A stretch of DNA of 64,000 nucleotides. It comes from Callorhinchus milii. Lineage: Eukaryota. The notes under the pieces were generated by a model. It was not told the DNA's origin. It was given only the letters and a program-made list of their open reading frames with translations, and ran no database searches. The translations under genes and the position numbers were made by a program. The stretch covers positions 682,001 through 746,000 of the forward strand of contig NW_024704772.1 of assembly GCF_018977255.1 (NCBI RefSeq), in the 5' to 3' direction. Below are positions 99 to 41,000 of the stretch, in pieces (position 1 is the first letter of the stretch; each line of letters starts with the position of its first letter).

Positions 99-1809
99 GT
101 TTATCATGGATCGCACGCAGAGAGGTGCCGAGGACTGCGAGGTGCTCGTCACCGTGTCCGACCTGGGGGGCCGGGCAGACGAGCTGAATAAACCCTGCTT
201 GAAGAGGCTGGGTGTCTGCCTGCGACAGATCGGGGATGAGCTGGACGGCAACGTGGAGTTGCAAAGGTAACCTCAGCCCAGTCTGCCTTGTTAAGTCACT
301 ATATCAAATGCAAGGATTGTCGTCGTTGTTATTACGATTGTTTTACACTAATCAGTCCTCAGTAGCCTGTAGCGGAGGAGGCTTCCTATCTGTACAGTGG
401 AATCCTGTAGGTTAGAGCTCTCGCCTCTCACGCGAGAGGACCTGGGTTCCCGGGCAGCAGGAATTCAAGATTCTGGGGGAGTTTAGAACTTATTACTGTT
501 TATAATCGGGGTTCTGTGGCTTCAGCCACTTGTGGATTGTCTCTTCTGTCCCAGACTCTAAGATCGACCCCTCCTGTTGTTCACTTTAAGGACCGCACTG
601 TAAACCCTGTCCCTCGACTCTCTTTGCCCACCACACACAGGATGATCAACAGGATTTCCACCAGCTGCCCCAAAGAGACCTTCTTCCAAGTGGCCAAGGA
701 GCTGTTTTCCGATGGAGTCATCAACTGGGGACGAGTGGTCACTCTCTTCTACTTTGCCTGCAAGTTCGTCGTCAAGGTGGGGCCCTGTTTCCTGTGGCTC
801 GGGGACAGTCAGTCAGAGAGCTGCCGCGTTTGCATCGTAACCCCTGCGATCTAGACTCCGTCTGGCGTGGAGGGCGCTATGTAAATGCAAGTTGTTGTTG
901 ATCTGCGAGCTGCCTTGTTACTCCCCTCTTCTCCCCCCCCCCACCGGTTGGTTTTGTACGTGTGACCAATGTCTGGCGTCTCCGTTTGACAGGCCGTGTG
1001 CCAGAAGCTCCCAGAGCTGATCCAGACCATAATCACGTGGACTCTGGAATACATCCAAGAGAATATCCTCCAGTGGATCCGGGAGCACGGTGGCTGGGTG
1101 AGTCTCGCTGTCGCTCTCACTGCGCGTTTCATTCCCGATGCTCGTGGTCTTCGTGGTTCAGTGTCGGCGCTCTCGCCTCTCCGCGTCGGACACTTTGACG
1201 TGCTCGGTGTGGGTGTCTGCAGGTTCCCGGGGCGGGACCACAAAACACACGGTCACTTTTGCAGTGTATCCGGTCAGGCGCTCTGAGACGTCACAAAGAC
1301 ACGATAAGGTGCCGTGTCAAATGCAAGGATTATTATTACGTCTTTTTCGGGGATTTTTTTTTCCTGAGCCTTATTTTCGCGTCTACAGCGGTGGGGCTTT
1401 GGAACAACAAGGAAATGTTTTTCGGTGGGAGAGAGGATAGAGAGAGACAGACGGAGGGTGAGGAGGAGAGAGTGGGCGGGAAGAGGTCAAGCCTCGTTGG
1501 GGGCCCTCTTAGTTCCCGGACCCCCCAAGCGATCGGATTTGCTGTTTGCAAAATGATCTGCCTCGTCTCTCCCCCCAACCCACACGTACGCACAAATAGT
1601 CGCTGCGCTTTGGAGAAGTCCCGAAAGGCCGTACGTCAAACACAAGGATTGTTGTTATTTGTGATGTCGAACAGGAGGATTCCGAACGTGTCTGTTCTTG
1701 TTTATCTGTTCCCCAGGATGCTATCCTCGGCACCCCGACCTGGCAGACTGTCAGCATCTTCATCCTGGGGGTCATCACTACCCTCGTGGTGGTGCGGTGG
1801 AAGTCTTAA
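99..1809 (+). CDS. bax: Apoptosis regulator BAX (5'-partial; coding exons 99-266, 641-776, 993-1097, 1717-1809)
   Basis: Four exons with AG/GT boundaries that splice in frame: FIMDRTQR...CLRQIGDELDGNVELQR (BH3), MINRISTSCPKETFFQVAKELFSDGVINWGRVVTLFYFACKFVVK (BH1 NWGR), AVCQKLPELIQ...QWIREHGGW (BH2), DAILGTPTWQTVSIFILGVITTLVVVRWKS* (TM anchor with the Bax-typical GTPTWQTV). The first exons lie before the window. Confidence 0.95.
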
Positions 1810-9172: not shown

Positions 9173-11530
<2,358 letters not shown>

Positions 11531-13797: not shown

Positions 13798-13860
13798 GCA
13801 TTACTTCATTGCCGGGGAGGGACGAGATGGAGTGTCCATTGTGGGGGAACGTGTATTCCA
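13798..13860 (+). pseudogene. Degenerate partial copy of the first zinc-finger exon
   Basis: About 63 bp with roughly 6 differences from 14469-14531. The acceptor AG has become GG (ttgccggg vs ttgccagg), CPLC has become CPLW, and the copy ends at an (AAC)n LINE tail. Confidence 0.8.
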
Positions 13861-14290
13861 ACAACAACAACGACATTACATGTGTAAAGGCCTTTCACAT
13901 CAGGAGGACGTCCCAAGGCGCTGGACAGACAGAGCTGGGGGTCAGGGTGGAGGGCAGAGGGCAGGGGGGGAAGCAGGGAGATCGAAAGCATGGTCGAAGA
14001 GGAGCTTCTTGAGAGGGGTCTTGAAGGTGGCGAGGGAGGGGGCGAGGCGGAGGGACTGCGGGATGGAGTTCCAGAGGGCGGGGGCAGAGTGGGCAGAAGG
14101 CCCCGCCCGCCGATAGTGGGGCGAGCGAGGAGGTGGGGGGGGGGGTAGTGAAGCAGGCCGGTGCCCGCTGAGCGGAGGGAGCAAACGGGGTGGTAGGGGG
14201 TTAGGAGGTCCCAGAGGTGGGGTGGGGTGGGGTGGTGGGGGGCTGGGGGCGGGGGGAGCAAGATCGTGGAGGGGCTTTGACGGTGAGGAT
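13858..14290 (-). mobile_element. L2-clade LINE 3' fragment
   Basis: Minus-strand translation HSAPALWNSIPQSLRLAPSLATFKTPLKKLLFDHAF resembles the C-terminus of L2 ORF2. It is followed by a 3' tail gggacgtcctcctgatgtgaaaggc...(GTT)n. Related fragments occur near 22350-22520 and 60440-60660. Confidence 0.7.
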
Positions 14291-14497
14291 CAGGATCTTG
14301 AACTGTCTCCTCCTGTTGTGCCATTGTGGCCAAGATTAACCCTTTCACTCACCGCTTCCAGGTTTAGTTAGTAAAATTAGGAGAGATTAACCGTTTCGTT
14401 CAGATTCTTCCTCATATTTGACAGACGGACGGACAGGGCTGGGAGTCCTGAAGACGTGATCGGTCGTGGCATTGCTTCATTGCCAGGGAGGGACGGG

Positions 14498-17312
14498 ATG
14501 GAGTGTCCGTTGTGCGGGAACGTGTATCCCAAGAGCAAGATAGAGTGTCACGCCTGGCACTGTTACAGCAGAACCACCCCGGGGGAAGAGGACCAGCCCA
14601 GCGAGGGAGCGGGCGAGGGAGGGAGCCGGGAACAGGACGGGCAGCGGGCAGCCAAAGGAGGTGAGAGCCACGGTGAGAAAACGTTCTCCAGGATCGGGTT
14701 AAGTGCTGTCGACGACTGGGAGAGGAGAGTGTGCGCCCCATTCCAGACCGGGGAGAAATTGCCAACTTTCACGCTCCCTCTCTTATCTATCTCCAGCCCC
14801 CCCCACACACTCTGTCTTTGTGTGTGTGTCTCTCTCTCCCTCTCTCCCTCCCTCAGCCTCCCCCCTCGCGTTAATAATAATAATATAATAATAATAATCC
14901 TCGCATTTGATGTAGCGCTTTTCACGTCTTCTCGACGTCTCAAAGCGCTTCACAGGATAGACCGTAAAGTGAATTGACCGTATGTTTGTGCTATCTCCGC
15001 TGTGTGTTGTACAGAGACGCTCAGGGCCGGGGGGATGGAGCAGGATTGCCCCCTGTGCGGCCTGCGATTCCCGGCTGCCGACATCGAGGAACACGCGGCT
15101 TTCTGTAACGGCCCCAGCTACAGCCGGAGCCCAGAGGAGGAGGAGGTGGCTGGGCGCGCCGAGGCTCAGCGGACCGGGCACCTCTTTTGGAGGTAAACGA
15201 GGTTCACCTTCACCCATCTGGTTCACGCACGCACTCGCCTCGCAAGCGAGAGGACCTGGGGTTCGATTCCCGGGCGGGGACCGAACCTTCTGCCCAATGT
15301 CGGAGACGCCACCACCCAGATATCACTTAGTATTGTGTTAGGTTGTTTCCTCATTACACACTCACAAACACGCACACTCTCACACACACGCATACACAAT
15401 CACACACACACATGCGCACACACGGGTACACACTCACTCGCACACACGAGTACACACACACACACACGCGCGCACACACACACAGATGCGCACATACAGA
15501 CACACACGCACACACACACACGCTTGTGTTTACCAGCAGTAAGTAGGAACCCTGTTGTTAGTTGATTGGCGTATTGCTTTTTCAGGGGTAATGATCCCCT
15601 CGCAAAGCTAACTAAGTAACGTGGTCACCCAATCCCACGGCTGTTTGTGGGGACATCGCTGGGCGCCATTGGCTGCCGTGTTTCGCCCGCAGAACACGCA
15701 CAGTCACTACACTTTACGGTACGTGCTGTGAAGCTCCTTGGAAAGTCTCAATGACGCGATAAGGCGCTGTGTTAAATCTAAAGGTTATTGTTGTTGTTCT
15801 GATTGTTATTATTAACGTTCTTCCGGCTCCTCTTCCCCTCAGCTACGTGAACAGAGATCGGAGGTTGGGACGCAGAGGGGCAGAGTGTGCGAGGCGGGAG
15901 CCCGGGGGCTCGGTGTCGGTGTGGGGCCCGGTTGGAGCCTCGGGGGGCTGTGAGCAGGATATCTCGCAGGAGCTGGCGGTTTTCCAAAAGTTCGGACAGG
16001 ATCTCGAGCAGAATCCTGAGTTCATCAAGTGAGTTTCTCTCCACAAACACACACTCGCGCGAGTTTCCTTACTCCACACACACACACACACACACACTCG
16101 CGCGCACACACACACACACATACTCGCGCGCACACACCCACACCTCTGTTTACTGAGCAGTCAGTAGGAATCCGGTTGTTAGTCGATCGTTTGGCGTATT
16201 CGCTTTTCCGGGGATAATAATCCCTTCAAATAAGTCAATAAGGTGGTCACTCAAAACCCACCGCTGTGCGCGGGGAACGCCGCTGTGCGCAATTAATCAA
16301 TCGGCTGCCGCCTTCCACCCACGGAACGCACAGTCGCTCCACTCGACAGTGCGTCCTGCGAAGCGCTTTGAGACGTCTCGAGGGCGCGATTAAAGGCGCT
16401 GGGTCGGAGGCGAGGGTTGTTGTCGTTGTCATCAGCCTGCGCTGTCTCCGCACAGAGCTGTCAAGTCTCTGCTGAGCAAATCCAAGAGCCCTCTGGAAAT
16501 GCTGAAGAACGTGTCGATGGCACTTTTCTCAGCAGGTGTTGGTGGAGGTGGCACCGTCTTCATGTTCTTCCAATTGGCTAAGATGTTCTTACCGATGGTG
16601 AGCAACGAAACTGACCAGCGGCTGAGTGTCTGTGTGTGCGTGAGTGTGTCTGTCTGTGTGTGCGTGTATGTACGCTAAGCTGTTTGTGGGACACTGCTGG
16701 CTGCCGCCTTTCGCCCACAAAATACACAGTCACCACATTAAACCTTACAGCGTGTCCTGCGAAGCACTTCTACACGTCTCAACGACGTGATCGGGCGCCG
16801 GGTCAAACCCCGGGATTCCTATCGTTATTGTTCATAGGATTTTTGTGCCGTGACAGATTCTGGAAAGCGAATCCTTCGTGACCTTTCAGAAGTGGGCAGG
16901 AAGCTTTATCCTGACGACTGTGGTCCCTTGGATCGAAAGGATAGGGGGCTGGGTGAGTATTTGGTGGAGGTGGGGGTGGGGGGTGCAACTGTGTGTATGG
17001 GTGCAGTGTGTGGTGTGTTCCAGGTTCTGCGATGGGGTCTCGTACACGGGGTGACCGAACAGTCCTGATACCGTCACAATGTCATTAAAGAAAGGATGAT
17101 TTTCTTTAGATAACACGAAAGGTGCTGCGTAAATGTCATTTGCTGTGGTCTCCCACTTGAGTCGCTCACTCACTCTGCTCTCTCTCTCTCTTCCTCTCTC
17201 CCTCTCTCTCCTCCGCACATAGCCGGTTGTTCTGGCCATGATGGGAGCGGTGTTGGCTGTCGGCCTGTTTGCCGGCTTCATAAAACTTCTGCAGGGTCAT
17301 TCCTCCCAGTGA
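14498..17312 (+). CDS. Divergent Bax/Bcl-2-family protein with two N-terminal UBZ4-like zinc fingers, ~284 aa (exons 14487/14498-14660, 15015-15192, 15843-16028, 16456-16597, 16857-16952, 17223-17312)
   Basis: All six exons have canonical splice sites and join in frame (855 nt from ATG 14498 to TGA). Zinc fingers are [20 protein letters not shown] and [33 protein letters not shown] aligns to Bax helix 1. BH3-like [13 protein letters not shown]1-like [22 protein letters not shown]2 [10 protein letters not shown] tail [23 protein letters not shown]. Intron phases in the Bax-like part (2,2,0,0) match the neighbouring bax. An additional upstream coding exon is possible. Confidence 0.85.
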
Positions 17313-21545: not shown

Positions 21546-24500
21546 CTAGGTGACCAGATGGGTCCAGTCGCTGGGACGTCTCCCGTACTGAAAAAGAAGA
21601 AAAAGGAATGATGTGCACTCCGTGTCTGTGCTGTGCCAGTGTGGTGGTCAACAACAACAACAACAATAATAATGATAATCCTGGCATTTGCTACAGCGCT
21701 CTATCGCGTCTTCGAGACGTCTCAAAGCGCTTCACGGGATATACTATAGACAGAATATATAATATTCAATGCCCAGTTCCATTATCCACAAAATACGGTT
21801 GATCCAGAGCTCACCCGCACTAAACTCCGTGTCCCAGTCCTCGTCAGGTTCCCTGTCACACACACTGAACCCCATAGCCCCCCATCACCCCAGTCCAATG
21901 CTGTTATCGTTGTAGTCTGTCTCCCTCCAAATCCCCCCACCCCCGTTCCCAGACTCACCTGAATGTCTGTCAGTTCTTTAAGGAAGCGTTTTGCCAAATC
22001 CGGACCATTCTCCATGGTGGGAATATGATAGTTCTGAAAAAACAATACATAAAGATAACCAACATTCCCAGAACTTATTCCCGTCGCCGGGAACTCGAGG
22101 GGAAATGTATTACATTTTCCCAAACGGTACAGGGGTCCACCATTAGGATTGTCTTAAAATTAACAAGATTTGCCCACAGTCCTCAGCAAAATAGCATTAA
22201 TAATCCTCGCATTTGATATAAAACCTTATTACGTCATTGAGATGTCTCAAAGCGCTCACAGGATATACTGTAAAGTGGAGCGACTATTTTGTTGTGGGCG
22301 GCAGTCAATTGCGCACAGCAGTGCCCCCCCACAAACAGTCGTGAACAGATCCCAAGGTGCTGGATGGTCAAGCTCCTGAGCTGGGGCTGGGATCAGGAAG
22401 GATGGAGGGCAGGGAGGGGATAGGAGGGTGACCGAAGGCTCGGTCGGAGGAGGATCTTGAGACGTGCATTAAGGGAGGGGGCGAGGGGGACTGGGAGGGA
22501 GGTCCAGAGGGGGTCTGGAGGTACCTGGTCGCAGTAGAGGATCTTGTTGATGGGACACACGACACAGGCTGTTCCTGCTCCGAACACCTCTTTAACTCGC
22601 TTCTCCTGAAGCCCTTTGATCAGGTCGGGAAGTGTTAGCTTCCGCTCCACCACTTTAAACTCCCCCTGAAATCAACGCAGGACAGTGTGGGGACTGCAGA
22701 CATAAATAAACACAAAATAATTTCCCGGGCGAAAGACCAGGGTCCATCCAGTTTGCCTTTCACCATCCTGGCCATCGCTTGACATGTCGTGTCCCAAACC
22801 AGACACTATCTGTGGGTAGTGTATGTGTGTGTGACAGAGACACACAGAGAGAGAGTGTCTGTGTGTGTGTGACTATATACTGTATCCCCCAGAGGTTATT
22901 TTCTGACAGAAAGCCATCTCGTGTTCTTGAAACAAACACTTTCTGCTCCCACCGTCTGTCTATCCGTCTGTCTGTCTGTCTGTCTCCCTCCCTCCCACCC
23001 TCCCTCCATAGGGGGAGACATACGTTTGCTATTCTCACTGAAGTAGTGTTTGTTCCGAATTTATCCCCCCCCCCCCACCCCCGCCGTCAATCGCAGGCCG
23101 TGTGTGTCCTCTGGTACAGACAAGAGAACGGTTCCGAACAAAACCCACGTTCAGTCAGAAAGCCTTAGAAAAAAAAGGAGATTTTCTTCGATCTCGGGTC
23201 CAAACTTGGGGGGGAAAGAATAATCATTATCATAATCTTTGCGTTCGATATAGCGCCTCGTCGTCTCGGAGCGGGTCACAGGATTTACTGTCAAGTGTCG
23301 CGTAATGATAATCGTCAGCCAGGACCCTGAAGAGGCGGACGGGAACTTGGGCTGCTGCGACTGGAGTCAAGTGTCTCCTCCCAATTCGTGTGGGTCGTAA
23401 ACAACGGCACAGAGGGGCCGGGCTGAACGGCTGTGCACGTGCGGAGAGCGGTGTCGAGTGCCAACGTACCCATTTCTTTCCCAGGTCCAGTAAACTCTGT
23501 CTGGTAACACCAGGGAGGATCGTGCCATTCAGCGGTGGTGTGAGCAACTCCAACACTAAGAAAAAAAAACACACACACACCAGAGAGAAACTCACTCGTC
23601 AACAGAAAGGCTGATGTGTCGATCACACGGGACACCGTTTGTTTATTCTCAACGTTCCTTCGTTAATAGGAAATGATGATAATAATAATAATAATAATAA
23701 TCCTCGCATTTGATACGACGCCTGATCATCTCGTCGAGAAGCCTCAAAGCGCTTCGCAGGATGCTCTGTGAAGTGGAGTGACTGTGTTTTTGTGGGCGCG
23801 GCAGTGGATGGAGTGTTTTTTTTAAGGGGTTAGTTGAGGATGGTTTAATTCCACGTTTAATTCCCCTCCACCATACGCGGGCCCCGACCCCTGACTGTCC
23901 AGTGCCTTGGGACGTCCTCCCGACGTGAAAGGCGCTCTGTATAAAAGGCATTTTGTTGTTGTTGTTGGGGGTGGGGGTGGGGTCTCTTGGAAGCTAATCT
24001 CCCGGCCGCGCTGCCACCCACCTCCCTGCTCGTTGTTCCAGTAGACGAAGATGTTCATGGTTCCCACCTCGGTGATCTCGTGATCTTCCCCATACAGCCA
24101 CAGCACCTGTTGGCAGCCGCGCTTCAGTGCCTCGCTCTGCACGTAAATGGTGGGGCCGTAATTTCTACGGTGGGGGGTGGGGGAGAGAATAATTAATTCA
24201 GGGAGGGCGCAAAAGTTAGCGACAACAGGAACAGATTACATTTGTATAGTGCCTGCGCGGGTGAGTGGGTGCCAGGCGGCAGGGAGGGAGGCAGGGTGGT
24301 AGGTTTCTTTCATTCATACTCCCTTTTCTTTCATTCGTACTTTTTTTTTGTGGGGGGGGGGGTGGGGAAACGTGGCTGAGACGTCTCAAAGCGCTTTGCA
24401 GGCTACACTGCAAAGTGTAGTGACTGTGTTTTGTGGGCGAAACGTGGCATCCAACTGTGGATTGAGTGGCTGTTATTAGTAGTTATTATCATTATCATCA

Positions 24501-27500
24501 GTGTGTTTGAAGGGATTGTTGATCCGAAGTCCTGGTAAGGAAGAACGGCTCAAAAATGACAACTAACCACCTCTCGCCCCTGTTCTTTGCCTACGTACCC
24601 TCCCAACTTGCAGTCGCCGACTCCTCCTTTCCACGCCCGCACGTACATGGGGTCAGCGATCAGGGAGATGGGGTTGAAGCTCCCTGTGGAGAAGTAAGGC
24701 CCCACCGGCCCTAGAATAACAAAGAGCAATGCGTGGTTCGACTGCGAGACTCCTAGAGACGGCTGAGGAGGGAGAGAGAGAGAGAAAAACCTCAGGTAAA
24801 CGTGATGTTACAATCCCTGACTGTCCAGCGCCTTATAATAATGATAATAATCCTCGCATTTGCTACCGCTCCTGATCACGTCCACCAGACGTCTCAAAGC
24901 GCTTCACAGGACACACTGTAAAGTGTAGTGACTGTGCGTTTTGTGGTTGAAACCCAACAACTAACAACCGGGTTCCCGCTGACTGTTAGTAAACAAGAGG
25001 CGTGTGGGTATGTGTGTGTGTGGGGGTGGGTGGGGGTGGGTGTGTGTGTGTGTGTGGGTGGGTATGTGTGTGTGTGTGTGTGGGTGTGTGTGTGTGGGGG
25101 GGGGTGGGTGTGAAGTAAGGAAACTTGCCATGTCCTCTCGCTTGCGAGGCGAGTGCTCTAACCACTGCACTACAAGCCTCCACACCGAGCTACCGGACGC
25201 CACACTGATGTTCAGGGAGGGTCGGCAAACAAGGAGAAGACCCAGAGGGTAAAAAAGCTTTGTGTTCCTACCTCAGTGCCGATGAACGTGGGTCGGATGT
25301 AGAGACTGGCTGAGGTGGAGTAAGGCACCCACTCTCTGTCCACCTCAATCAGCTTCCGAATGCAATCCAGCAGCTCGAGCTTGTCAAAGGCCTGGGGGGG
25401 GGGGGGAGCACAAACATGAGAAATAGGAGCAGGGCGGAGGCCATTCAGCCCCTCGAGCCTGTGCCCCCGCCATTTGATAAAGATCGCGGCTGATCTTCTC
25501 GCCAATTCCATGGACCCACCCTGGTCCCCGTATCCCTTTAAAGCCCTTTAGTTTTTAAACAATCCGTCCATCTCGGCTCTTGAACCCGTTCGGAGACTGA
25601 CTGAGCGTCTGCAGCCTCTGCAGCAGAGAATTCCAGAGCCCTCGACAGTGGCGGAGGGAGCACAACACCGAACTGAGTTGGGGGTGTGGGGGGGGGGAGT
25701 GGGGAGGTGACTGTAGGCACGACCTGATGATGGGGGAGGAGGGGGGGGGCAACGGCGGAGGGACTGACTGAGGGAGAGAGCGGCGGAGTTTGCTTGTTGA
25801 CCGGGCAGGGGGTAGGAGAGGCTGGGGGGTACCGGCAGGCAGGCTCGCAGGGTCGAGCGGAGCATCCTCTCCATGTTCAGGTCCGGCCGGAACATCCGGA
25901 TCTTGTTGTCCACTCCCCGGAAAGCCTTCATCCCCTCAAACAGCTGGGGGCCAGAGAAAGAGAGAGAGACACGTCCTGTTACTGCAGAACACTCAATTTA
26001 CCTGAATTCGCTGCTGGGATATTTCAAAATAACGACAACAACAACAACAACAGTAATCCTGGCAGTTGGGGACCCGGGGCTTTACCACGTCCCCCAGACG
26101 CCTCAAACACTGGGCCGAGGGGGCAGTGGAGGTAACGACAGCAAAATGTCGTGGACAGTGGCGCTCTTCGCGTCGGGAGGACGGCCCAAAGCGCTGGGCA
26201 CTGGGAGAGGAAGATCGTCGGGCTGGACCTGAAGATAGGGAAGAAAAGGGAAGGGGAGGGAGGGAGGGATTCATTGATTACAACTACTGTGTTACCTCCA
26301 CGGAATAGTGCAGAGCGGATGACGCGGGGTGCAAGGAGAGGTTCTGAAAGGGTTTGATGTGAGGTCTCTGCCAGCCTTTCTCGCTGTTCCACCCGACCGT
26401 CAGCATGTGGTCCGTGAAGGACTTGCCGAACACCAGGCTGTCGTTGTCCGGCTTCACCTTCGGCTGCTTGTTGATCTCGATCTGCAAATCCGCGGCCTGT
26501 CAGGGGCCCCAACCAAACAACGCAACGTAAGTCTACATTTGACGACGGCCACCTTTCCGCATACAGAGGAAGCCCTACCAACCACCCCCCCCCCCCCCCA
26601 ACAACCAAAAGAAAACCGTGGAAGTAATGACCCCGGCGTTTGACCCCCAGCGCCTGATCACGGCGTCGAGACGCCTCAAAGCGCTTCACGGGATGCGCTG
26701 TAAAGTGTAGGGGCTGTGTATTTTGTGGGCGAAACGTGGCAGCCAACTGCGCACAGCAGCGACCCCCCCACACACAGTCGTGGATTTGAGCGACCAGCTG
26801 TACACCACCACGTGCGTACGACTTGTACCCATTTCCTCCCCTTGTACGGACCTTAAACATGGAGCTGCCATTACGCCAGGAGCCATTGCAAAACCTGTGA
26901 GTTGGACACAGTTGTCTGGACAAAGCCTGCAAGCAAACACACAAATAAATAATATTATTAATAATAGCAAAGTCAATTGACCTGTGCAGTTTGTGGGCGA
27001 AACGCGGCAGCCAGTTGCGCGCAGCGACGTCCCACAAACGGTCGTGGGTTGAGTGACCGAATTGTCAGTCATTTTTTAACTAATTTTTGAAGAGATTTTT
27101 TAGCCTCAGAAAAGCAATCCGCCGATCGACCCACTACTTACTTACGAGGTAAACAGCGGCGCGAGTGTGCGCGAGCGTGCGTGGAGTGAGGAAACGTGCC
27201 TGAGCCTGGCCGGGAATCGAACCCAGGTCCTCCCGCTATCACGAGCTCTCTCTCTCTCTCTCTCTCTCTCGCTGCGGGAGTCGGCTAAGACCGTTCCCTC
27301 CCATGCTGTCCAAGTCTCGACAGAAAGCCTCGTTAGGATGATTAAAGAAAACAAACCCATCGGAGCAGAACACGGGGAGTGACAAACCAGCCAGTGCTTT
27401 ATTAACCAGACTTTGACTTGCCTCGTACTTGGCAAATACCTCGCTATCATTGGTCAAGAGGGGACCAGGGAGAGAGAGAGAGAAAAAAAGGCGTTTGCAT

Positions 27501-29073
27501 TTCCACCAGCTCAGCAACTCAAAGACGTTCTCGATTAGAAAGTCCTCTCCGGTCAGTTCAAAGTACAGGACTCTCTGGCGCACACACAGGCTGAGGAGGT
27601 TATGAGAGACAGGCTCCCTGGGGAGACAGACAGTGGAAGCAGAAAGAGTTGATTCTTTCAAGAGCGAAGGACAAATTTCCGTCAGGAAATAATATCTGGG
27701 GGAAGACAGTGTGTAGTCTGGGGTCACGACATGTCCAGCGACGGCAGGGATAGCGGAAGGCCAACTGGATGGACCTTTGGTCTTCTTTCGTCCAGCGAGT
27801 GCTTAAGTCGGAGTTGGTTCTAAAGGACACGAGTCTACAAAGCCAGGCCGGACACTCCTCAAAGCTTGGATTAAGCTGCGATTTTCCTGCAGTTTTCAGA
27901 AGATAAGCCTTGGAAACCCTCCAACCTCTCTCCCTCCCTCTCTCTGTGTCTCTCTCTCAGGAGAATCAGCCCTCCTCACGGTAAGAAACCTTTCCTCTTG
28001 CTTTTGTATTGAAGGCACAGTAAGGGTATCCAGCACTCTGGGACTCTATTATAAATGCAAGTTGTTGTTAAACCGCCGAGTACTATTTTCCAAACTATGG
28101 CTGTCGCTTAGAAAAGGGAGAAGCCAAAATATCTGCTCCTTGTTCTGGGGGGGCGCGGAGTGGGGGGGGGGGGGGGGTGGATGCTCAATGAAGCAGCACT
28201 GAGAGGATTTCATACTTTTCTTTCTGTTTAAGAGGGAACCACGAGACGAGTTACAAAGTCCATTCAGAGACTGTGTGTCAGAATAATAACAACCCCTGCA
28301 ACTGGCACAGCACTTGTCACGTCTTCTCGACGTCTCAAAGCGCTTCACAGGAATATAATAATAATAATAATCCTTGCATTTGATATAGCGCTTCTCACGT
28401 CGGGAGGACGTCCCAAAGCGCTTCACAGAACACACTGTAAAGTGAATTGACTGTATATTTGTGGGAAAAACGCGGCAGCCAATCGCGCACAACAGCGTCC
28501 CCACAGACAGCGGTGGATTGAAAATGATCAATTTATTATTGTTTTTTTTTTGAGGGATTATTATCAGGTGTGTGTGTGGAGTAAGGGAACTCGCCCAAGG
28601 TTTCACCCTGACCCGCCGGGAACCGAACCCAGGGGTCTCTCGCTTGCAAAGCGAGTGCTCTGACCACCGAGCTACCCTACCGCCTCACAGGATATACCGT
28701 GAAGTGTGGCGACTGGGTATTTTGGGGGCAAAATGTATTTAGGGACGTGCGCGGGGCAAACGTTGCTGTTCGGAGTTACAGTCCCCAAGCACTGTCCTGC
28801 ACGGCTGGCTTTGATATTTCACCCTGCGATTAGCTGACTGGTACGTGAGCTGACGAGTGAGCCGAGCATTGAATGCGAATCAGCTGCCTTAGTGCTTCAT
28901 TCTCAGCCCCGCCCGGCCCCGCCCGGCCCGGCCCCGCCCGGACCGGTCCGGCATGTTCCTGCTGTCTCTGTGGATAAGTACTTAATACGCCAGCGCTGGT
29001 TTCTTTGTCCAATCAGCACTTGCACCACACGGAATCTGGGTGCGGATTGCGCCATTTTCCCCACCGCAGCCAT
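21546..29073 (-). CDS. bcat2: Branched-chain amino acid aminotransferase, mitochondrial (exons 29073-29020 tentative, 26926-26852, 26496-26296, 25943-25833, 25391-25272, 24762-24599, 24164-24022, 23555-23470, 22665-22525, 22033-21959, 21587-21546)
   Basis: Eleven exons splice in frame. Motifs include [38 protein letters not shown], the PLP lysine in DCKLGGNYG, EVGTMN, ILPGVTR, the redox CXXC in GTACVVCP, and the end [13 protein letters not shown]. An Arg/Ser-rich presequence-like N-terminus and linkage to bax support BCAT2 over BCAT1. Exon 1 has a weaker donor (caa|gtgctg). Confidence 0.93.
27300..27800 (+). mobile_element. CR1-like LINE 3' fragment in bcat2 intron 1
   Basis: Degenerate ORF2 C-terminal words (RLPG...VEAE..DSFK..DKF) followed by the tail aaggccaactggatggacctttggtcttc. 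The reverse complement of this tail recurs at ~7561-7620 and ~22727-22800. Confidence 0.55.
28356..28675 (-). mobile_element. tRNA-derived SINE, short subfamily copy
   Basis: Reverse-complement match to 19378-19707, including the tRNA-like head and (ATT)n tail. Confidence 0.8.
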
Positions 29074-29230
29074 CGGCAAAACCGCAGCTGCCCGCAGACG
29101 GCGACAACAACTTGGGACTGACACCGCGCCCTCTAACGCCGTCTCAGAGCGCTTTAGAGCGCACGCACAAGGCAGTTCTAAGACGCTCGCGTCAAGTCCC
29201 GGTGAGGGAGGTTTCGGTGGCAGAACGGAC
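28880..29230 (-). promoter_or_regulatory. CpG-rich 5' region / promoter of bcat2
   Basis: CpG-dense non-repeat sequence with (GCCCG)n GC-box-like runs at 28906-28945 around the putative first exon. Confidence 0.5.
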
Positions 29231-29546
29231 TCGGGGTTGAGACTCGAGGAGCGCGAGGACCTGGGGTTCGATTCCCAGTGCGGGAGAGCGAAACCTCAGG
29301 CGAGTGGCCTTTACGCGGGAGGGGAGGTACGCGCTCTGAAACGAGCTCCACTCCCCGGGGCTGCGGAAACACATTCCACTCCAACCCCCACGTTGGGAGG
29401 ACTCGCGTCCTCCCGACGTGAAAGGCGCTCTAGAAATGGAATCTTCTTGTCGTTGTTGTTGTTGTTGTTGTTGATGACTCCCGTCCGACCGTTTGTTGAC
29501 TTTGGAGTGAGTCGGGTTTCGAGCCATAACAACAACGGTAATAATA

Positions 29547-29583
<37 letters not shown>

Positions 29584-29906
29584 GGGTAATAACAACCCAT
29601 TAATAGGATAATAAAATAATAATAGTCATAAAACAGTAACAGTCAAATAAGCCAATTTGTGCTCAATGGTGTCCTACAATTTTATTCGGGGAGGGGTGGG
29701 GGGGGGGGGTGAGGGGGGGTGTTAGCCAGGACACTGGGAAAGAGAGTGAGCGAGAGAGAGAGAGAGAGAGAAACTTTTCTTTTTGAATAGCCCCGCGGGG
29801 GGAGATCTTTAACATCCGCCTGAACCCCCCCACCCCCCAAACACACACACAGTCGCCCCCACCCACCCCATACCATTCCCCCCCCCCAACCCGCTCCTAT
29901 AGTTAT

Positions 29907-30183
29907 AATTCCAGGCAGAGGGCGAAACCTCGGGCAAGTTTCCTTACTCCACACAGAGCCTAATAATAATCCTCCAAAACCAAAAACAATAATAAATTGG
30001 TCATTTTCAATCTGCGACTGTTTGTGGGACATTACTGTGCGCAATTGGCTGCCGCGTTCGCCCACAAATATACAGTCAATTCACTTTACAGTGTGTTCTG
30101 TGAAGCGCTTTGGGACGTCCTCTCCCGACGTGAAAAGCGCTATATCAAATGCGAGGATTATTATTATTATTATTATTATTATT
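29907..30183 (+). mobile_element. 5'-truncated SINE, nearly identical to 19435-19707
   Basis: aattccaggcagagggcgaaacc...acagagcctaataataatcctccaaaac...cgacgtgaaaagcgctatatcaaatgc(ATT)n. Confidence 0.85.
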
Positions 30184-30517
30184 AATCCCGTACTTCACTC
30201 CCGTCTCCCGCTCGGCTGAGAGCGCCGTCGACTCCGGCCACACACTGCCCCGTCGCTCCCCCCCAAGTGATGTGGGGGTGGGTGGGGGGTGGGGTGAGGG
30301 GGTCAGGGCGCACAGCGTCAATTTACACCCCCCACCCTCCGCTCCGCTCACACTCGCTCTCTCTCAAACAGGCCGACTCTCTACCGACCTTGTTTACCCC
30401 ACACCGGCCCCCCCTTCCCCCCCCCCTCCCACCTTTCCCGGGAACCCCACCCTTCAGCAGCAACGACAACAACAACAACAACGACGAAATGACACTTGAA
30501 GGGCGTCTCTCACGTCG

Positions 30518-31610
30518 GGGGGGGGGGGGGGGGGGTGAGTGAAGTCAGAGAGCTCTCTCCTTTTACACTCTCTCTCTTCATTTACACACTCTCTCTCTCT
30601 CCTTTTACACTCTCTCTCTTCATTTACACACTCTCTCTCTCTCCATTTACACACTCTCTCTCTCCATTTACACACTCTCTCCATTTACACACTCTCTCCA
30701 TTTACACTCTCTCCATTTACACACTCTCTCTCCATTTACACTCTCTCCATTTACACACTCTCTCTCCATTTACACACTCTCTCCATTTACACACTCTCTC
30801 TCTCTCCATTTACACACTCCCTCTCCATTTACACTCTCTCCATTTACACACTCTCTCTCTCCATTTACACACTCTCTCTCTCTCCATTTACACACTCTCT
30901 CTCTCCATTTACACACTCTCTCTCTCCATTTACACACTCTCTCTCTCTCCATTTACACACTCTCTCCATTTACACACTCTCTCTCCATTTACACACTCTC
31001 TCTCTCTCCATTTACACACTCTCTCTCTCCATTTACCCCCCCACTGTCTCTCACTCCCTTCCCTCCTTCTTTCTCTTTGTTACTCACTCCCTCCATCGCT
31101 CTGTTTTTACTCTCTCCATCACTTACTCTCTCACTTTTTGTTTCTCTCACCTCCTCCCCTCTCTCCCCCCTCTCACTTACTCCTTCACCCCCTTCCCCCT
31201 CCTCCTGTACCCTCTCCCCCTGTCCCCCTCTCTCCCCTGTCCCCCCTCTCCCTCTCCCCCTGTCCCCCCTCTCCCCTCTCTCCCCTGTCCCCCTCTCTCC
31301 CCCTGTCCCCCTCTCTCCCCCTGTCCCCCCCTGTCCCCCCTCTCTCCCCTGTCCCCCCCTGTCCCTCTCTCCCCCTGTCCTCCCTCTCTCCCTCTCCCCC
31401 TGTCCTCCCTCTCTCCCTCTCCCCCTGTCCCCTGTCACCTCCTCTCCCCCTGTCCCCCCCTCTCCCCCTGTCCCCCCTCTCCCCTGTCCCCCCCTGTCCC
31501 CCCTCTCTCCCCTCTGTCCCCCTCTCCCCCTGTCCCCCCTCTCCCCCTGTCCCCCTCTCTCCCTGTCCCCCTCTCTCCCTGTCCCCCTCTCTCCCTCTGT
31601 CCTCTCACTC
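30518..31610. repeat. Composite pyrimidine minisatellite: CCATTTACACA(CT)n units, a spacer, then CCCCTGT/CCCTCT units
   Basis: Directly visible tandem units; source of the long spurious HTLSL/PLSP ORFs. Confidence 0.9.
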
Positions 31611-34600
31611 ACTCACTCACCCGCCTCAGTCCTGTCGCCGCCATTGCACCGTCACAACCCCTCCCCCCGGAACCCGCCCCCGGGACAAAGGTTCCGCCCC
31701 AACAGCCCAGAGACAGACTCCCCCCACACCCCCTCACACACACCCCACACACACTCACCCCCACACACACACCCTCACACACACACACCCTCACACACCC
31801 CCTCACACACACACCCTCACACCCCCACACACACACACACTCACCCCCACACACACACCACACTCACACACAACACACCTCACACACCCCCTCACACACA
31901 CACCCTCACACCCCCACACCACACACACACTCACCCCACACNNNNNNNNNNNNNNNNNNNNNNNNNNNNNNNNNNNNNNNNNNNNNNNNNNNNNNNNNNN
32001 NNNNNNNNNNNNNNNNNNNNNNNNNNNNNNNNNNNNNNNNNNNNNNNNNNNNNNNNNNNNNNNNNNNNNNNNNNNNNNNNNNNNNNNNNNNNNNNNNNNN
32101 NNNNNNNNNNNNNNNNNNNNNNNNNNNNNNNNNNNNNNNNNNNNNNNNNNNNNNNNNNNNNNNNNNNNNNNNNNNNNNNNNNNNNNNNNNNNNNNNNNNN
32201 NNNNNNNNNNNNNNNNNNNNNNNNNNNNNNNNNNNNNNNNNNNNNNNNNNNNNNNNNNNNNNNNNNNNNNNNNNNNNNNNNNNNNNNNNNNNNNNNNNNN
32301 NNNNNNNNNNNNNNNNNNNNNNNNNNNNNNNNNNNNNNNNNNNCCAACAGCCCAGAGACAAGCACCCACCACACCCCCAACAGCCCACCCCACCCCCACA
32401 CCCCACCCACATACACACACACACACACACATACCCACCCCCACCCCCCTCACACCCCCCCCCCCACACACACACCCACACACACCCCACTCCTCCCACA
32501 CATACACCCTCACACACATCCACTCCCTCACACACACACTGACACACACCCCCACACAAAAACACACGCAGTCACTACAATTTACAGTATATTCCTTGGA
32601 AGCGCTTTGGGACGTCTCCATTAGGTGCTGTGAGAAACGCAAAGATTTCATATAATAATAATAATAATCTTCGTATTTTTATGGTATAAATGTTTTTATT
32701 TATTTAAAGAAATACGTAAATATCTGCAACACTTAGGTACATAACCTGTATATGCCTGTGTGTGAGTGTGTATCTGTGTGTGAGTGTGTATCTGTGTGTG
32801 AGTGTGTNNNNNNNNNNNNNNNNNNNNNNNNNNNNNNNNNNNNNNNNNNNNNNNNNNNNNNNNNNNNNNNNNNNNNNNNNNNNNNNNNNNNNNNNNNNNN
32901 NNNNNNNNNNNNNNNNNNNNNNNNNNNNNNNNNNNNNNNNNNNNNNNNNNNNNNNNNNNNNNNNNNNNNNNNNNNNNNNNNNNNNNNNNNNNNNNNNNNN
33001 NNNNNNNNNNNNNNNNNNNNNNNNNNNNNNNNNNNNNNNNNNNNNNNNNNNNNNNNNNNNNNNNNNNNNNNNNNNNNNNNNNNNNNNNNNNNNNNNNNNN
33101 NNNNNNNNNNNNNNNNNNNNNNNNNNNNNNNNNNNNNNNNNNNNNNNNNNNNNNNNNNNNNNNNNNNNNNNNNNNNNNNNNNNNNNNNNNNNNNNNNNNN
33201 NNNNNNNNNNNNNNNNNNNNNNNNNNNNNNNNNNNNNNNNNNNNNNNNNNNNNNNNNNNNNNNNNNNNNNNNNNNNNNNNNNNNNNNNNNNNNNACACCT
33301 CGACCTTTCGTGTGTTCGTTGTGTGTGTGTGTGTGTGTTTCGGGCTCGGAGGACAATCAATGTGAGCTGTTCTGGGGAGAGGGGGGGGTGCGGGGGGAGA
33401 GGGGGGTGCGGGGGGAGAGGGGGGTGCGGGGGAGTGTCTCCAGTCCTGCGCTGTGACTGGCTTCGGGGGAGAGGTGTGGATGTGGCGTTACATCATCAGG
33501 AACGGTCAGTCCGAGCTGAAGGGGACAGAAGGAAGAAGTGGGAGGCTTTGAGAAGACCATCCAATTGGCCAGCACCTCGCGTGTGCGTGTGTGTGTGTGT
33601 GTGTGTGGGGGGGGGTGTGTGGGGGTGTCTCGTGTCCCAAGCGTCAATGTCGCTCGTACTCCCCCTCCACCCCAACCCCCCCCCCACCGTTCCACATACC
33701 CGGGTCCACAGTCATTTCTATTTCGGGAGAACATTTAAGACGTAACTCCTGACACCTCGTGGCCTCGCTCGGCTGTGGGCTACTGACCTGCTGCGTTCCG
33801 CCCCGCAAAACACACAGTCACTACGCCTCACAGTGTGCCCCGTGAAGCGCTTCGAGACGTCGTGACGACGTGATGAGGCGCCGGGTCAAACGCCGGGATT
33901 TTATTATTATTATTATTACTATTACGATCATATTGACGGTGCGAGTGGCTTAAGTGGTCGGCGACCGGTTAAGTCAGGGTTGAGTTATCAGGAGTTTGCT
34001 TCATTGACAACAGTTTTTAATAGAATCCACTGTTTGACACATGTTCGTTTGTTTTCATTTCAGGTGACACTCGACCCTCACTATGTCACTAACGACGACG
34101 ACGACAACAACTTGGCATTTACTCCCGAGGGTGGAACGGAGGAGGGCGCGAGCGCGAGGGAGGGCCGGAGCCAGTTCGAGCGGAGGCAACGGTTGGTGGG
34201 TCGGGGAATGAGCGGGTCGGAGAGGTCAGACCCCTTTGAGAAAGTGTGGGGAAGAGATGTGCAGCAAGGAGACTGCTCCCTCCCTCCCTCCCTCCCTCCC
34301 TCCCTCCCTCCCTCTACGGGGCAGAGAAGACCCTCATCTCTTTACCTCCTCCCGATGAAACGGCCATATTCAGCAGCTCCTTGCGCGACTGATCCAACAA
34401 GGAACACGCGTGTTCCCTGACACAGAGTCTCGGCTCACGGGCCGCCGCTGGGCAGGAGACCTCGGTTGGTTCTGAGCGCGGCGACGGCTTACCCTCAGCG
34501 CAGAGTGGTACGCGATCCCGATTGAACGACTCACCCAAAAAAGGCCCAATGGACGAACGTGTCTTGAGAAGAATCCAGCGAGCTCCCGCACGGGGGAAAT

Positions 34601-36958: not shown

Positions 36959-38072
36959 TTGGTTGCTCAATCCACGACTGTTTGTGCGCAATTGGCTGCC
37001 ACGTTTCACCCACAAAATATACAGTCACTACACCACGTTATATTCTGTGAAGCGCTTTGAGACGTAATCCACTCACGCCTCTGGTTACCATCAGTCAGTA
37101 GGAACCCGGTTGTTAGTCGATTGGCGGATGGCTTTTCCGGGGGTAATAATCCCTCAAAAAACATGTGGTCACTCAATCCACGACGGTTTGTGAGGGACGC
37201 TGCTGTGCGCAATTGGCTGCCGGGTTTCTACCACAAAATACACGGTCACTACACTTTACAGTGTATTCCTGTGAAGCGCTTTGAGGCGTCTCAGTGACAT
37301 GATAAGGCGCCGTATCAAATGCAAGGATTATATAATGTGGGCTGTCAGCCTCTTGCGGTGATAGAAACTGCCAAACAGACAGACAGACAGACAGACACGC
37401 ACACACACACACGCGCGCGCGCACACACACACACGCACGCTCGCACGCACGCACCCACGCACGCCTCCGTTTACCAGCAGTGAGTAGGAACCCGGTTGTT
37501 AGTCGATCGGTGGATCACTTTCTGGGGGTAATAATCCCTCCAAAAAAAATAATAATAGTTTGATCACTCACTTCACAGCTGTGTGTGGGATGTCGCTGTG
37601 CGCAATGGGGCTTCCGTGTTTCGCCCACAAAATGATTATTTCCATCCATCGTCGCTGCCTCCGGGGGTCCCGGACGATGATGGATATTATTGTGAAACGT
37701 TGAGATTCTGATGATTATTTTGCCTCCACAGGCGATGGATGCTCGAAAAGATGTTGCCGAGAAAAAGGTAGGCGTTGCTGTTAGCCGAAGGAAATATCGT
37801 AGAAAAATGTAGTCGGTCGGCGGGTGATAACAACCCCTTCAAAAAAATATGAATAATTTGGTCGCTCAACCCACGACTGTTTGTGGGGACCGTCGCTGGG
37901 CGCGATTGTCCCACAAAACACGCACAGTCGCTACGCTTTACGGTATGCTCCGCGAAGCGCTTTGAGACGTGATTAGGCGCTGTATCAAAACCCGTATTGT
38001 TGTTGTTATTAATTATTATTGATTATTATTAATTATTTCTGTTTGGTTAGGTATACGGCAGCATCTTTTGTG

Positions 38073-41000
38073 ATGACATCTTTGTTGCACCATGAAAACA
38101 GAGCCGGCGGGAGCTATAACAGCGCAAACAAGAAAGCCAGGTGAGTCACGGGCAGGACAGCAACGACAACTTGCATTTATGTGGCTTCGCCTTCACCTGG
38201 GCTGGAGTCCCGGAGAAATATTTTTTTAGAGACGTTGCCTCCATTTTGTTTCCGCTGTGGTAGCTCTCTCTCTCTCTCTCTCTCTCTCGTCTCGGAGTCA
38301 GAAGGTTGTGGGGGGGATGGGGGGGGGTGTCCTACGGATGAGACGTTTAAACCTCACTCACTCCCCTCCCCGTCCGCCTCTTTAGGGGGACGTTAAACAT
38401 CTCCCGCTGAGCTGTTCGAAAAGAGAATGGAGTTTCTCTCTCTCTCTCTCTCTCCCAATTTGTACCTATGTTCACTTATCTTCTTACAGGAAGAAATTTG
38501 GTGCCACAGCCCCCCCCTATATAGACTATCTGAAACAGATCTTACGTCGCTACCCAGATGGTAGTCAAATCCTGAAGGTAAATACATCAACAATAATAAT
38601 AAAGTGCCTTATATTGGACCCGGCGCCTGATCACGTCATCCGAGGCGTCTCAAAGCCTTTCACGGGATACGCTGTAAAGTGAATTGACTGCGTATTTTTT
38701 GTGGGCGAAACCCGGCAGCCGATTGCGCACAGCAGCGTCCCCACAAACAGCCGTGGATCGAGTGACCACATTTTTTGGGGGAGGGATTATTCCGCCAATC
38801 GACTAACAACTGGGTTCCTACTCACTGCTGGTAAACAGAGGCGTGTGTGTCTGTGTCTGTGTGCGTGTGTGTCTGTGTGAGTGTGTGTCTGTGTGTGTGG
38901 AGTCAGGAAACTTGCCCAATGTTTCGCCCTGTCCGGGAATTGAACCCAGGTCCTCTCGCTTGCGAGGCAAGTGCTCTAACCACTGAGCTACAGGACTCCA
39001 CTTATCTGTGGGTGGGTTTGGAGGGATTCCCTTTTATAAAGAAATGTTTGTTACCTGCTGTTGCCCTAAACACTGCAGATCTGCTGTGGACTGGAGCAGC
39101 AGTGAAGGGATTGAGTAGTTTGGGCATCCAGTCAGTGTTAGCGTTCTGCTTAACATCTCTCCTCTCCCCCCAGGAGTTGATTCAAAATGCAGATGATGCT
39201 GAGGCCAAAGAAGTGGTGTTCCTGTTCGACGAAAGGTCTTACGGGACATCGAGCCTATTCCTGAAGGACCTGAAATCATTCCAAGGTAAGTCATTAGGTT
39301 AAATGCTGGAGTCCTGTAGCTCAGTGGTTAGAGTACTCGCCTCGCGAGCGAGAGGGCCTGGGTTTGATTCCCGGGCGGTCAGGGCAAAACATTGGGCAAG
39401 TTTCCTTACTCCACACACACGCACACACCTCTGTTTACCAGAAGTAAGTATGAACCCGGTTGTTAGTTGATTGCGGGGGTAATAATCTCTCCCCCAAAAT
39501 AAATAATGATAATAATTTGGTCACTCAATCCACGGCTGTTTGTGCGGACGCTGCTGTGCGCAATTGGCTGTCGCGTTCTGCCTAAAAAATGCACAGTCGC
39601 TACACTACAGGGGCTCCACAATGTCTCTCCTGTCTGTGTTTGTGTGTCAGGGCCCGCTCTGCTGGTGTACAACGATTCGGTGTTCTCGGAGGAAGATTGG
39701 CAAGGAATCCAAAACACCGGCACCAGCACCAAACGAAACGACCCCAACAAAGTGGGTCAGTTTGGCCTGGGGTTCAATACCATCTATCATGTCACAGGTA
39801 AAGGCTCCATTCCACCTTCACCTTGGGAACCCTTCCCAGAAAATATCTTATTTTATTTTTAGTTTAAAGGGAGAAGCTAACTGTGTGTAAAGGGTGGCGA
39901 GATTTTAGGAATTTAATCATAATAATAATTAATAATAATAATAATCCTCGCATTTGGCCTCATCACGTCGTCGAGACATCTCAAAGCGCTTTGCAGGATA
40001 CACTGTAAAGCGAAGTGACTCCTTCCGACTGCAACAAATGCAAGGATTAGGATTAAATAAACTCATGGCTGATCTGTACCTCAACCCCAATGACTTGTCG
40101 TTGCCCCGTACCCCTCGATCCCCTGAACTAACAAACATCTATCCTCCTCCGTCTTGAAAATGTGAATTAAATCGAGTTAAGGCAAAAGAATCTTGAGATG
40201 TTTGTCGAACGCTTTCGAACGCTTGCTTTTTATGTAGATTTGCCGACCATCTTCAGTGGGAAATATGTTGGCTTCCTGGACCCGCAAGAGATGCTGTTTG
40301 GCGAGGAGGAGGGAGGGTATATATGGTCACTCGATGACGCTGAGGACAGAAAAACCCTGGAACACTCCAAAGATCAGATGAGGCCATTCAAATATGCCAT
40401 GGAGACAACCGGCACCATCTCCTGGTCCAACGCACTGAAGGAGCACTACTTTAAGGGGACGCTGTTCAGATTCCCGTTGCGGAGCGAACCCTCGGACATC
40501 TCGGAAAACCTCTACGATAAGGACAAGATCTTCGATCTGTTCGACTCGTTCCAGGCCGACGCGGAGACCACCCTCCTCTTCCTCAGGAACGTCACATCCA
40601 TCTCCGTGAAGCATGTTGACATGGATGGCAACGTCAAGGCGCTTCTCAGGGTCATAGCCTCCCAGCCGGAGTACATCCCGTGCTTCAACCACAACCTGAA
40701 CGTGGAAAACCAGGAATTCTTTTCCAGCGTGAAAACCTCGACCTGCGTGAGAGCCATTTCCCAGCAAGCCTCCGAGGACGAGAGCCAGAACCATTGGCTG
40801 ATCACTAGCTGCACGGCCAACGCGGGGGAATGGGCAAGTCTGGACGAGCTGGCCGAGAAGTTGAGTTACATCCCGTACGTCGGCCTGGCATTCCCGCTGA
40901 GCCAAGCCGAAACGCTGGAAGCCGGCGGGAAGCTGGAGTTCGAGGGGCGCCTTTGCTGCTTCCTGCCTCTCCCGGACAACGAGAGCAACAAGACGAGATT

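Follow-up and report, generated by a model that had tools for sequence, protein, structure and literature searches.

The finger-Bax gene and its transcripts

We analysed a stretch of 64,000 nucleotides from Callorhinchus milii (contig NW_024704772.1, positions 682,001 to 746,000 of the forward strand; the whole stretch is called the window below), in which six exons encode two zinc fingers of the CCHC type fused to a body of Bax type with a hydrophobic tail. This gene, referred to here as the finger-Bax gene, is a real, spliced and conserved gene. Its exons and fingers are the following, in window positions:

14425..14660 (+): exon 1, the first coding exon; 5' untranslated region (UTR) from 14425, ATG at 14498 (coding 14498-14660), finger 1 and an acidic/Gly linker
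15015..15192 (+): exon 2; encodes finger 2, a linker and the first part of helix 1; enters in phase 1 and leaves in phase 2, as bax exon 2 does
15843..16028 (+): exon 3; last part of helix 1, a flexible loop, helix 2 (position of Bcl-2 homology motif 3, BH3, without GD), start of helix 3
16456..16597 (+): exon 4; helices 3-5, BH1 position without NWGR
16857..16952 (+): exon 5; helices 6-8, BH2 (W-I-x-x-x-G-G-W)
17223..17312 (+): exon 6; hydrophobic tail anchor and stop
14504..14563 (+): CCHC finger 1, C-P-L-C...H-A-W-x-C; Trp two residues after the His (His+2) in 21/21 jawed orthologues
15047..15106 (+): CCHC finger 2, C-P-L-C...H-A-A-F-C-N-G; Ala at His+2 in 21/21; nearest to RAP80 finger 1

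An initial annotation made from the sequence had proposed that six exons splice into an intact reading frame of about 284 residues, and this holds: all exons have AG/GT ends, the spliced window sequence gives 855 nt (284 codons and a stop) with introns in phases 1, 2, 2, 0 and 0, and the product has exactly the sequence of isoform X2 of Callorhinchus milii LOC103190156 (RefSeq XP_007909036.1), which is named 'uncharacterized'. An alternative donor of exon 1 at 14672, 12 nt downstream, adds four residues (isoform X1) and is used in one run. The tail encoded by exon 6 has a best 19-residue Kyte-Doolittle mean of 2.53, and according to contigs of public runs the 3' UTR extends to at least 17504.

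Splicing was checked in the contigs of eight public runs, i.e. seven of the eight runs guessed to be RNA (X6 was omitted; two studies) and one DNA-type run (X9). No run is recorded as RNA, and the evidence for splicing is therefore the precise loss of GT-AG introns. Both junctions that the initial annotation had predicted on either side of the finger 2 exon were recovered. The joint 14660/15015, from the finger 1 exon to the finger 2 exon, was seen in five of the seven RNA-type runs and, via the donor 12 nt downstream, in one further run; the joint 15192/15843, from the finger 2 exon to the BH exon, was seen in all seven, although the shorter flank in one run counts just 22 letters. The joint 16028/16456 was present in 6/7, and single contigs of X2 (1187 nt) and X3 (1502 nt) span all six exons and therefore five introns. 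No joint of the gene was found in X9, the one DNA-type run checked. Two exonic indels found in other individuals, of 12 and 3 nt, are in frame.

In the RNA-type contigs the 5' end of the first coding exon is joined to 77-443 bases of unmapped upstream sequence. Two stretches of 75 bases each with good splice ends (window 9206-9280 and 9745-9819, plus strand) are candidate 5' UTR exons, which when joined to exon 1 place an in-frame stop ahead of the ATG. A degenerate 70-base copy of the beginning of exon 1, with 61/70 bases alike, lies 0.7 kb upstream (window 13798-13867, plus strand); its second Cys codon has become Trp and it runs into a dispersed repeat.

Orthologues and conservation

Protein searches revealed orthologues in 22 named cartilaginous fishes, namely chimaera, sharks, sawfish, rays and skates. 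Both fingers are present in 21 of the 22 models, and the whole architecture described in the initial annotation recurs in 18; the other four are truncated, exon-skipped or fused to the neighbouring FGF gene. Every named record of the family is labelled 'uncharacterized', 'hypothetical' or 'C2H2-type domain-containing'. In Hypanus sabinus (P0025, P0052-P0054, P0062, P0064) the models have a duplicated helix-2 exon and an FGF domain in place of the tail exon, and these fused models are probably read-throughs into the neighbouring FGF gene.

A protein with three to four such fingers is also present in four lamprey species; its body is very divergent and ends in a BH2 motif, and it has a hydrophobic tail. 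The lamprey core scores 25 bits against the jawed-fish family profile versus 14.5 bits against bax. In the reverse search several Bax-like proteins (32-45 bits) score above the lamprey protein (27-30 bits). In the trees the lamprey protein, the branch of which is very long, joins the family at 100/99-100, and a grouping of the lamprey protein with the local bax pair was rejected (p-value of the approximately unbiased test, p-AU, 0.012). The lamprey protein is thus a probable orthologue as judged from sequence. Fingers and body in one protein were not found by protein searches in bony vertebrates, hagfish or invertebrates, where a very divergent orthologue could escape: two of the searches needed shared 5-residue words (one of them scored the best 7993 candidates) and the third was a single-sequence query. 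The gene is at least as old as the cartilaginous fishes and probably as old as the vertebrates.

The distribution of conservation along the protein was followed as region-wise protein identity, which stands in for the ratio of nonsynonymous to synonymous substitution rates (dN/dS). Identity to the 18 other jawed rows is 56% in finger 1, 65% in finger 2, 49% in helix 1 and 59% in helices 5-8; helices 2-4 and the tail are at 27-40%, and the three linkers reach no more than 13-21%. Since the fingers, helix 1 and helices 5-8 are conserved in comparison to the variable linkers, the pattern indicates selection that would act on both modules, i.e. the fingers and the body. The character of the C terminus is kept throughout: 23/23 members examined have a hydrophobic tail with a 19-residue mean of 1.8-2.8 and, after it, a net charge of +1 to +5.

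Sharks (P0002, P0014, P0016, P0017, P0055, P0060) show a peculiarity in the linker that leads from finger 2 to helix 1, which there consists of Ser/Tyr/Arg/Glu/Pro-rich repeats of about 11 residues in variable copy number, from one to more than ten copies. No such repeats are found in chimaera.

Bax ancestry of the body

The genes used for comparison are:

99..1809 (+): canonical bax, exons 3-6, GD and NWGR intact; comparison gene, not part of the fusion
G000:C31, about 675400-679300 (-): second bax-like gene (L029), just before the window and head to head with canonical bax; has six exons and retains NWGR and GD
G000:C17, about 13295500-13297500 (-): further intact-looking bax-like gene (L016), on another contig

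With L029, canonical bax and the finger-Bax gene the cluster therefore holds three Bax-type genes. Two Bak-like genes (L010/L039 and L011/L041) are also present in the C. milii genome.

The family profile matches BAX with an E value of 1.3e-9 (over BAX 57-167), BAK with 5e-4 and Bcl-xL with 0.025. A profile-profile comparison (HHalign) with seven Bax-like proteins gives a probability of 98.6% and an E value of 6e-16 over 154 columns, helix 1 included. Within the C. milii genome, scores against a core profile of 11 jawed members are 24-35 bits for the three bax-like genes, 8-15 for Bak and Bok, and 1-10 for the pro-survival genes. The window protein itself aligns locally with the bax of the window at a score of 96, as compared to a maximum of 54 in 1000 shuffles, with about 26% identity over 102 aligned residues. 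In the Pfam check proposed with the initial annotation, the Bcl-2 model PF00452 matches the window protein with an E value of 5.7e-5 over model positions 3-100, but this corresponds to 24 bits, below the cut-off of 31.4, and the models for ubiquitin-binding zinc fingers (UBZ) stay below their cut-offs as well. PF00452 is matched at E<=0.05 by 8 of the 22 members.

Gene structure points in the same direction. All five intron phases (1-2-2-0-0) are those of the bax-like gene just upstream of the window, and introns 2-5 agree in position and phase with canonical bax, the first exon of which is not resolved; the phases noted in the initial annotation as shared with bax are shared for these four introns. 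In Bak and Bok of the C. milii genome BH1 to BH2 lie within one open stretch. The fingers are located inside enlarged exons 1 and 2, and finger 2 shares its exon with helix 1. By homology the protein is a member of the Bcl-2 superfamily, and by gene structure it is of the Bax lineage.

In a tree of 30 rows and 107 columns (Bfk, Bcl-G, Bid and Bcl-rambo omitted) the family lies on the Bax side with a support of 97/91, together with a spider protein, and with 90/90 after removal of four long rows. A grouping with Bak was rejected (p-AU 0.016), while groupings with Bok (p-AU 0.15) or Bcl-2/xL (0.053) were not, and the tree does not name the parent Bax-like gene. The initial annotation had suggested a duplicate of the bax in the window. 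As stated this finds no support, because the gene is at least as old as the cartilaginous fishes and the tree does not resolve the parent; an origin from the C. milii bax cluster is neither rejected nor shown (p-AU 0.167).

Lost and kept Bcl-2 motifs

The body was initially described as complete, with BH3-, BH1- and BH2-like segments. The Bax homology, helix 1, BH2 and the hydrophobic tail bear this out, but the BH3- and BH1-like segments are so by position only, as their signature residues are gone. The GD of BH3 is present in 0/22 aligned members (the Gly in four, the Asp in one), and so is the NWGR of BH1 (0/22), with a Pro near the Arg position in 20/22. The GGW of BH2 is kept in 21 of the 22 rows, the exception being an FGF-fused model, and the first Trp of the BH2 motif has become Arg in four.

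The salt bridge between the BH3 Asp and the NWGR Arg is described as important for BH3 binding in an excerpt of PMC3962096. Full-length Bfk, which lacks NWGR and the groove, did not bind the Bid BH3 according to an excerpt of PMC8814693, and a BH1 without Gly is read as an unlikely BH3 groove in an excerpt of PMC8998228. Since both sides of the BH3-groove pairing are lost, ordinary killing or ordinary BH3 capture by the finger-Bax protein seems unlikely. In other words, the link to the Bcl-2 machinery suggested in the initial annotation would not run through ordinary pairing of a BH3 helix with a groove, both contact halves of which (GD and NWGR) are missing.

The zinc fingers

The two fingers proposed initially are the only C-x2-C-x11-H-x3-C motifs in the six frames of the window (starts at 14504 and 15047). 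Shuffling the bases of the window 100 times gave 0.08 such motifs on average and never as many as two. In an AlphaFold model the fingers are a hairpin plus a helix with a local confidence score (pLDDT) of 70-82, about 80 in finger 1. The resemblance of finger 2 to the RAP80 finger stood up: RAP80 finger 1 is the nearest finger in the PDB, and RAP80, identified by its exons for ubiquitin-interacting motifs (UIMs) and fingers, is the only other C. milii locus found with either finger as the query. The best solved-structure matches of finger 2 include RAP80, RAD18 and WRNIP1.

UBZs have been split by their contact residues, as given in an excerpt of PMC4370504. The RAD18/WRNIP1 group has a Pro-Val beta-loop and a helix Asp, by numbering two residues after the His; in WRNIP1 the beta-loop contacts Ile44 of ubiquitin and the Asp binds Arg42. 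The FAAP20/Pol-eta group has Asp at His-2, Leu (or Phe) at +1, Ala at +2 and Leu at +5. The CCHC spacing and a Pro-hydrophobic beta-loop are kept in 42/42 jawed fingers. The invariance at His+2 argues for a maintained binding face rather than for decay. Finger 2 of the lamprey protein carries the full RAD18/WRNIP1 signature, including the canonical Asp, in three of the four species, which hints that the ancestor may have read ubiquitin in the standard UBZ4 way.

Genomic neighbourhood

The further features of the window, and a related set elsewhere in the genome, are:

about 21900-31650 (-): branched-chain amino-acid aminotransferase gene, downstream of the finger-Bax gene and tail to tail with it
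about 37730-53480 (+): Sacsin-like gene; one open exon of 11 kb with 3689 codons (SACS and HEPN, weak DnaJ), preceded by several small exons
61876-62508 (+): exon with a match to PF12480, the GARIL/Rab2B-binding family
G000:C5, about 40507000-40541000: tandem Bcl-2-like exons without NWGR (L020, L023, L025, L026), about 11 kb apart

In human, BAX, BCAT2 and FGF21 are neighbours.

Possible functions of the protein

By the motif test the finger-Bax protein is neither a Bax-type effector nor a canonical UBZ4 protein. The reading that we tentatively prefer, though at somewhat short of an even chance, is that of a membrane-anchored, non-killing adaptor the fingers of which would catch ubiquitin-marked partners through a non-standard, RAP80-like surface. 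The hydrophobic tail would insert into the mitochondrial outer membrane or the endoplasmic reticulum. Helices 1-8 would keep a Bcl-2-like core that serves as a platform near the membrane and neither donates a BH3 helix nor accepts one in the ordinary way. The two fingers, on their long variable linkers, may share a single conserved ligand, to which they would bind weakly and by avidity. The last and weakest step is that the ligand would be ubiquitin or a ubiquitin-modified protein, which, given the three preceding steps, we regard as close to a coin toss. In favour of this reading are the selective conservation of the fingers, helix 1 and helices 5-8, the tail kept in all members examined, the loss of GD and NWGR, the beta-loop kept in all jawed fingers, the RAD18/WRNIP1 signature of lamprey finger 2, and the likeness of finger 2 to RAP80 finger 1. 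In the BRCA1-A complex the zinc finger (ZnF) region of RAP80 is near ubiquitin and 'may provide a secondary surface' (excerpt of PMC13462971).

Several observations speak against this adaptor. The Asp of the RAD18/WRNIP1 group is replaced by Trp in 21/21 first fingers and by Ala in 21/21 second fingers of jawed fishes. The FAAP20/Pol-eta set is not found either: in finger 2 His-2 is acidic in 2/21 only, +1 is Ala in 19/21 and +5 is Asn in 20/21, so that only the Ala at +2 matches, and finger 1 has Trp at +2. The canonical UBZ4 binding of ubiquitin that the initial spacing argument would imply is thus not upheld. No UBZ model of Pfam reaches its cut-off (zf-WRNIP1_ubi 15.4 of 26.4 bits, zf_UBZ 11.1 of 25.6), and the ESM Atlas leads for finger 2 are XAF1/TRAFD1-like and CEP104 fingers, all below 0.9. 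Deletion of the RAP80 ZnF caused a marginal loss of activity (same excerpt of PMC13462971), and because of this the RAP80 analogy argues for weak binding at most. The strong conservation of helices 5-8 suits a pore-forming role as well as a scaffold. Predicted structure also gives little help: the run of helices in two AlphaFold models fits the Bcl-2 pattern, but the models are weak, with predicted template modelling scores (pTM) of 0.40 and 0.47, and did not superpose as a compact Bcl-2 bundle. The top Foldseek match is BAX (E 0.049 and 7.8e-4), but with a root-mean-square deviation (rmsd) of 16-20 and with a score that includes sequence and is hence not independent; the top VIA match is also BAX (Z 7.5, rmsd 10.5, 127 aligned; Z 6.9, rmsd 11.2, 126 aligned), level with unrelated helical proteins. 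The ESM Atlas had no usable match for the whole protein.

The same membrane-anchored adaptor could have a different ligand. The fingers would then bind a specific non-ubiquitin protein, the invariant Trp face and the Ala-Phe-Cys-Asn-Gly-Pro face forming a new recognition surface. We consider this unlikely on balance, yet it is the alternative that fares best: the residues at the ubiquitin-contact position are invariant and are not Asp, neither of the described UBZ binding groups is matched, and the Atlas leads for finger 2 are XAF1/TRAFD1-like. On the other hand, the Pro-hydrophobic beta-loop of all 42 fingers, the canonical UBZ4-type finger in the lamprey protein and the presence of RAP80, RAD18 and WRNIP1 among the best structural matches of finger 2 favour ubiquitin as the ligand. 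Taken together, an adaptor of one kind or the other, whether for ubiquitin or for another ligand, is likely.

A BH3-independent pore former is a considerably less probable alternative. Here the conserved hydrophobic helices 5-6 would make a membrane permeable once the fingers encounter ubiquitin at high density on a pathogen vacuole or damaged organelle, or once cleavage or turnover has removed the fingers. BOK, with its BH3-independent activity, provides the model. With 59% identity, helices 5-8 are better conserved than any other part of the body, the tail anchor is retained, and since lampreys are reported to lack BH3-only proteins (excerpt of PMC8998228), an effector that needs none would be plausible there. 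However, oligomerisation of Bax/Bak requires BH3 and BH1 (excerpt of PMC8814693, on Bak), and both motifs are lost in 22/22 members; moreover, the C. milii genome already contains three bax-like genes with NWGR, two of them also with GD-E-L. A bolder variant, which we hold to be a long shot, is that the protein represents an ancient vertebrate death effector in which BH3 control was swapped for ubiquitin sensing, and which is present in lampreys and cartilaginous fishes and was lost in bony vertebrates. In this variant the fingers would sense ubiquitin coats on damaged mitochondria or on pathogen compartments, upon which the Bax-derived hairpin would permeabilise the membrane without any BH3-only protein.

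It is similarly improbable, and if anything a shade more so than the pore former, that the protein is a decoy that damps Bax/Bak through membrane contacts of its tail anchor or of helices 5/6, with fingers that bring in ubiquitin ligases or extraction machinery. The gene is located in the bax cluster and shares Bax ancestry, and the spacing of small residues in the tail might permit helix pairing. Yet there is no groove motif, and clustering follows from duplication and is no sign of a shared function. Finally, an annotation artefact, a two-gene read-through or a decaying duplicate is largely refuted and only just worth naming: the Pfam score below the cut-off and the truncated or FGF-fused models of some orthologues would fit it, but single contigs run through all six exons, the architecture is complete in 18 jawed species, finger 2 and helix 1 share one exon, and the exonic indels of 12 and 3 nt are in frame.

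Comparison with known proteins

BAX is the best sequence match of the body and has the same intron positions and phases, a BH2 motif and a tail anchor; the finger-Bax protein differs from it by two to four N-terminal zinc fingers and by the lack of the BH3 GD and of NWGR. RAP80 (UIMC1) finger 1 has the same spacing and the same H-A-x-[FY]-C-N-G end, but RAP80 binds ubiquitin mainly by UIMs, which the finger-Bax protein lacks, and has neither a Bcl-2 body nor a membrane anchor. The UBZ4 fingers of RAD18 and WRNIP1 share the CCHC spacing and the Pro-hydrophobic beta-loop, and their full signature is found in lamprey finger 2, whereas every jawed-fish finger has Trp or Ala in place of the helix Asp. 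Bfk (BCL2L15) and other NWGR-less Bcl-2 proteins also have a Bcl-2-type body without NWGR. Unlike the finger-Bax protein, Bfk keeps BH3 and is caspase-cleavable, and the excerpt of PMC8814693 describes no zinc fingers in it.

A fifth comparison concerns reptile 'BAX-like' proteins (tegu, turtle and gecko; P0031, P0059, P0066, P0067). They score 41-42 bits against the jawed-fish core profile and are without the BH3 GD, but they keep NWGR and have no fingers and no obvious tail anchor. They group with the family at 94/86 in one tree; this grouping is not starred, is absent from the other trees and may be due to long-branch attraction. This divergent reptile Bax paralogue is possibly a finger-less relative of the family. 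A spider Bcl-2-like protein (P0029) also joins the family (92/87 and 89/85) but was not accepted as an orthologue, as the grouping is flagged as a meeting of long branches. It is short, with a degenerate BH1, a tail like that of the finger-Bax family and no fingers.

The initial annotation knew of no Bcl-2-family protein with such fingers, and we found none in the literature, supplementary gene lists and most subscription papers not being covered. The word 'zinc' does not occur in the main text of two family-wide evolutionary papers (PMC8998228, PMC8282340), as far as the portions available of each extend. The finger-Bax proteins are apparently an undescribed subfamily of Bcl-2 proteins.

Few protein families in biology have been studied as much as Bcl-2, yet all named records found for this subfamily call it 'uncharacterized', and it lies below the Pfam cut-off. 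A Bax-type body appears to have gained a reader module and lost both contact halves of the BH3 groove, and the result has been kept across cartilaginous fishes and probably lampreys. It would be a natural case for what the Bcl-2 fold does without BH3 pairing and for the ligands of RAP80-type fingers. A further suggestion is that the Bcl-2 family of early vertebrates included a branch which was lost or stripped down in bony vertebrates.

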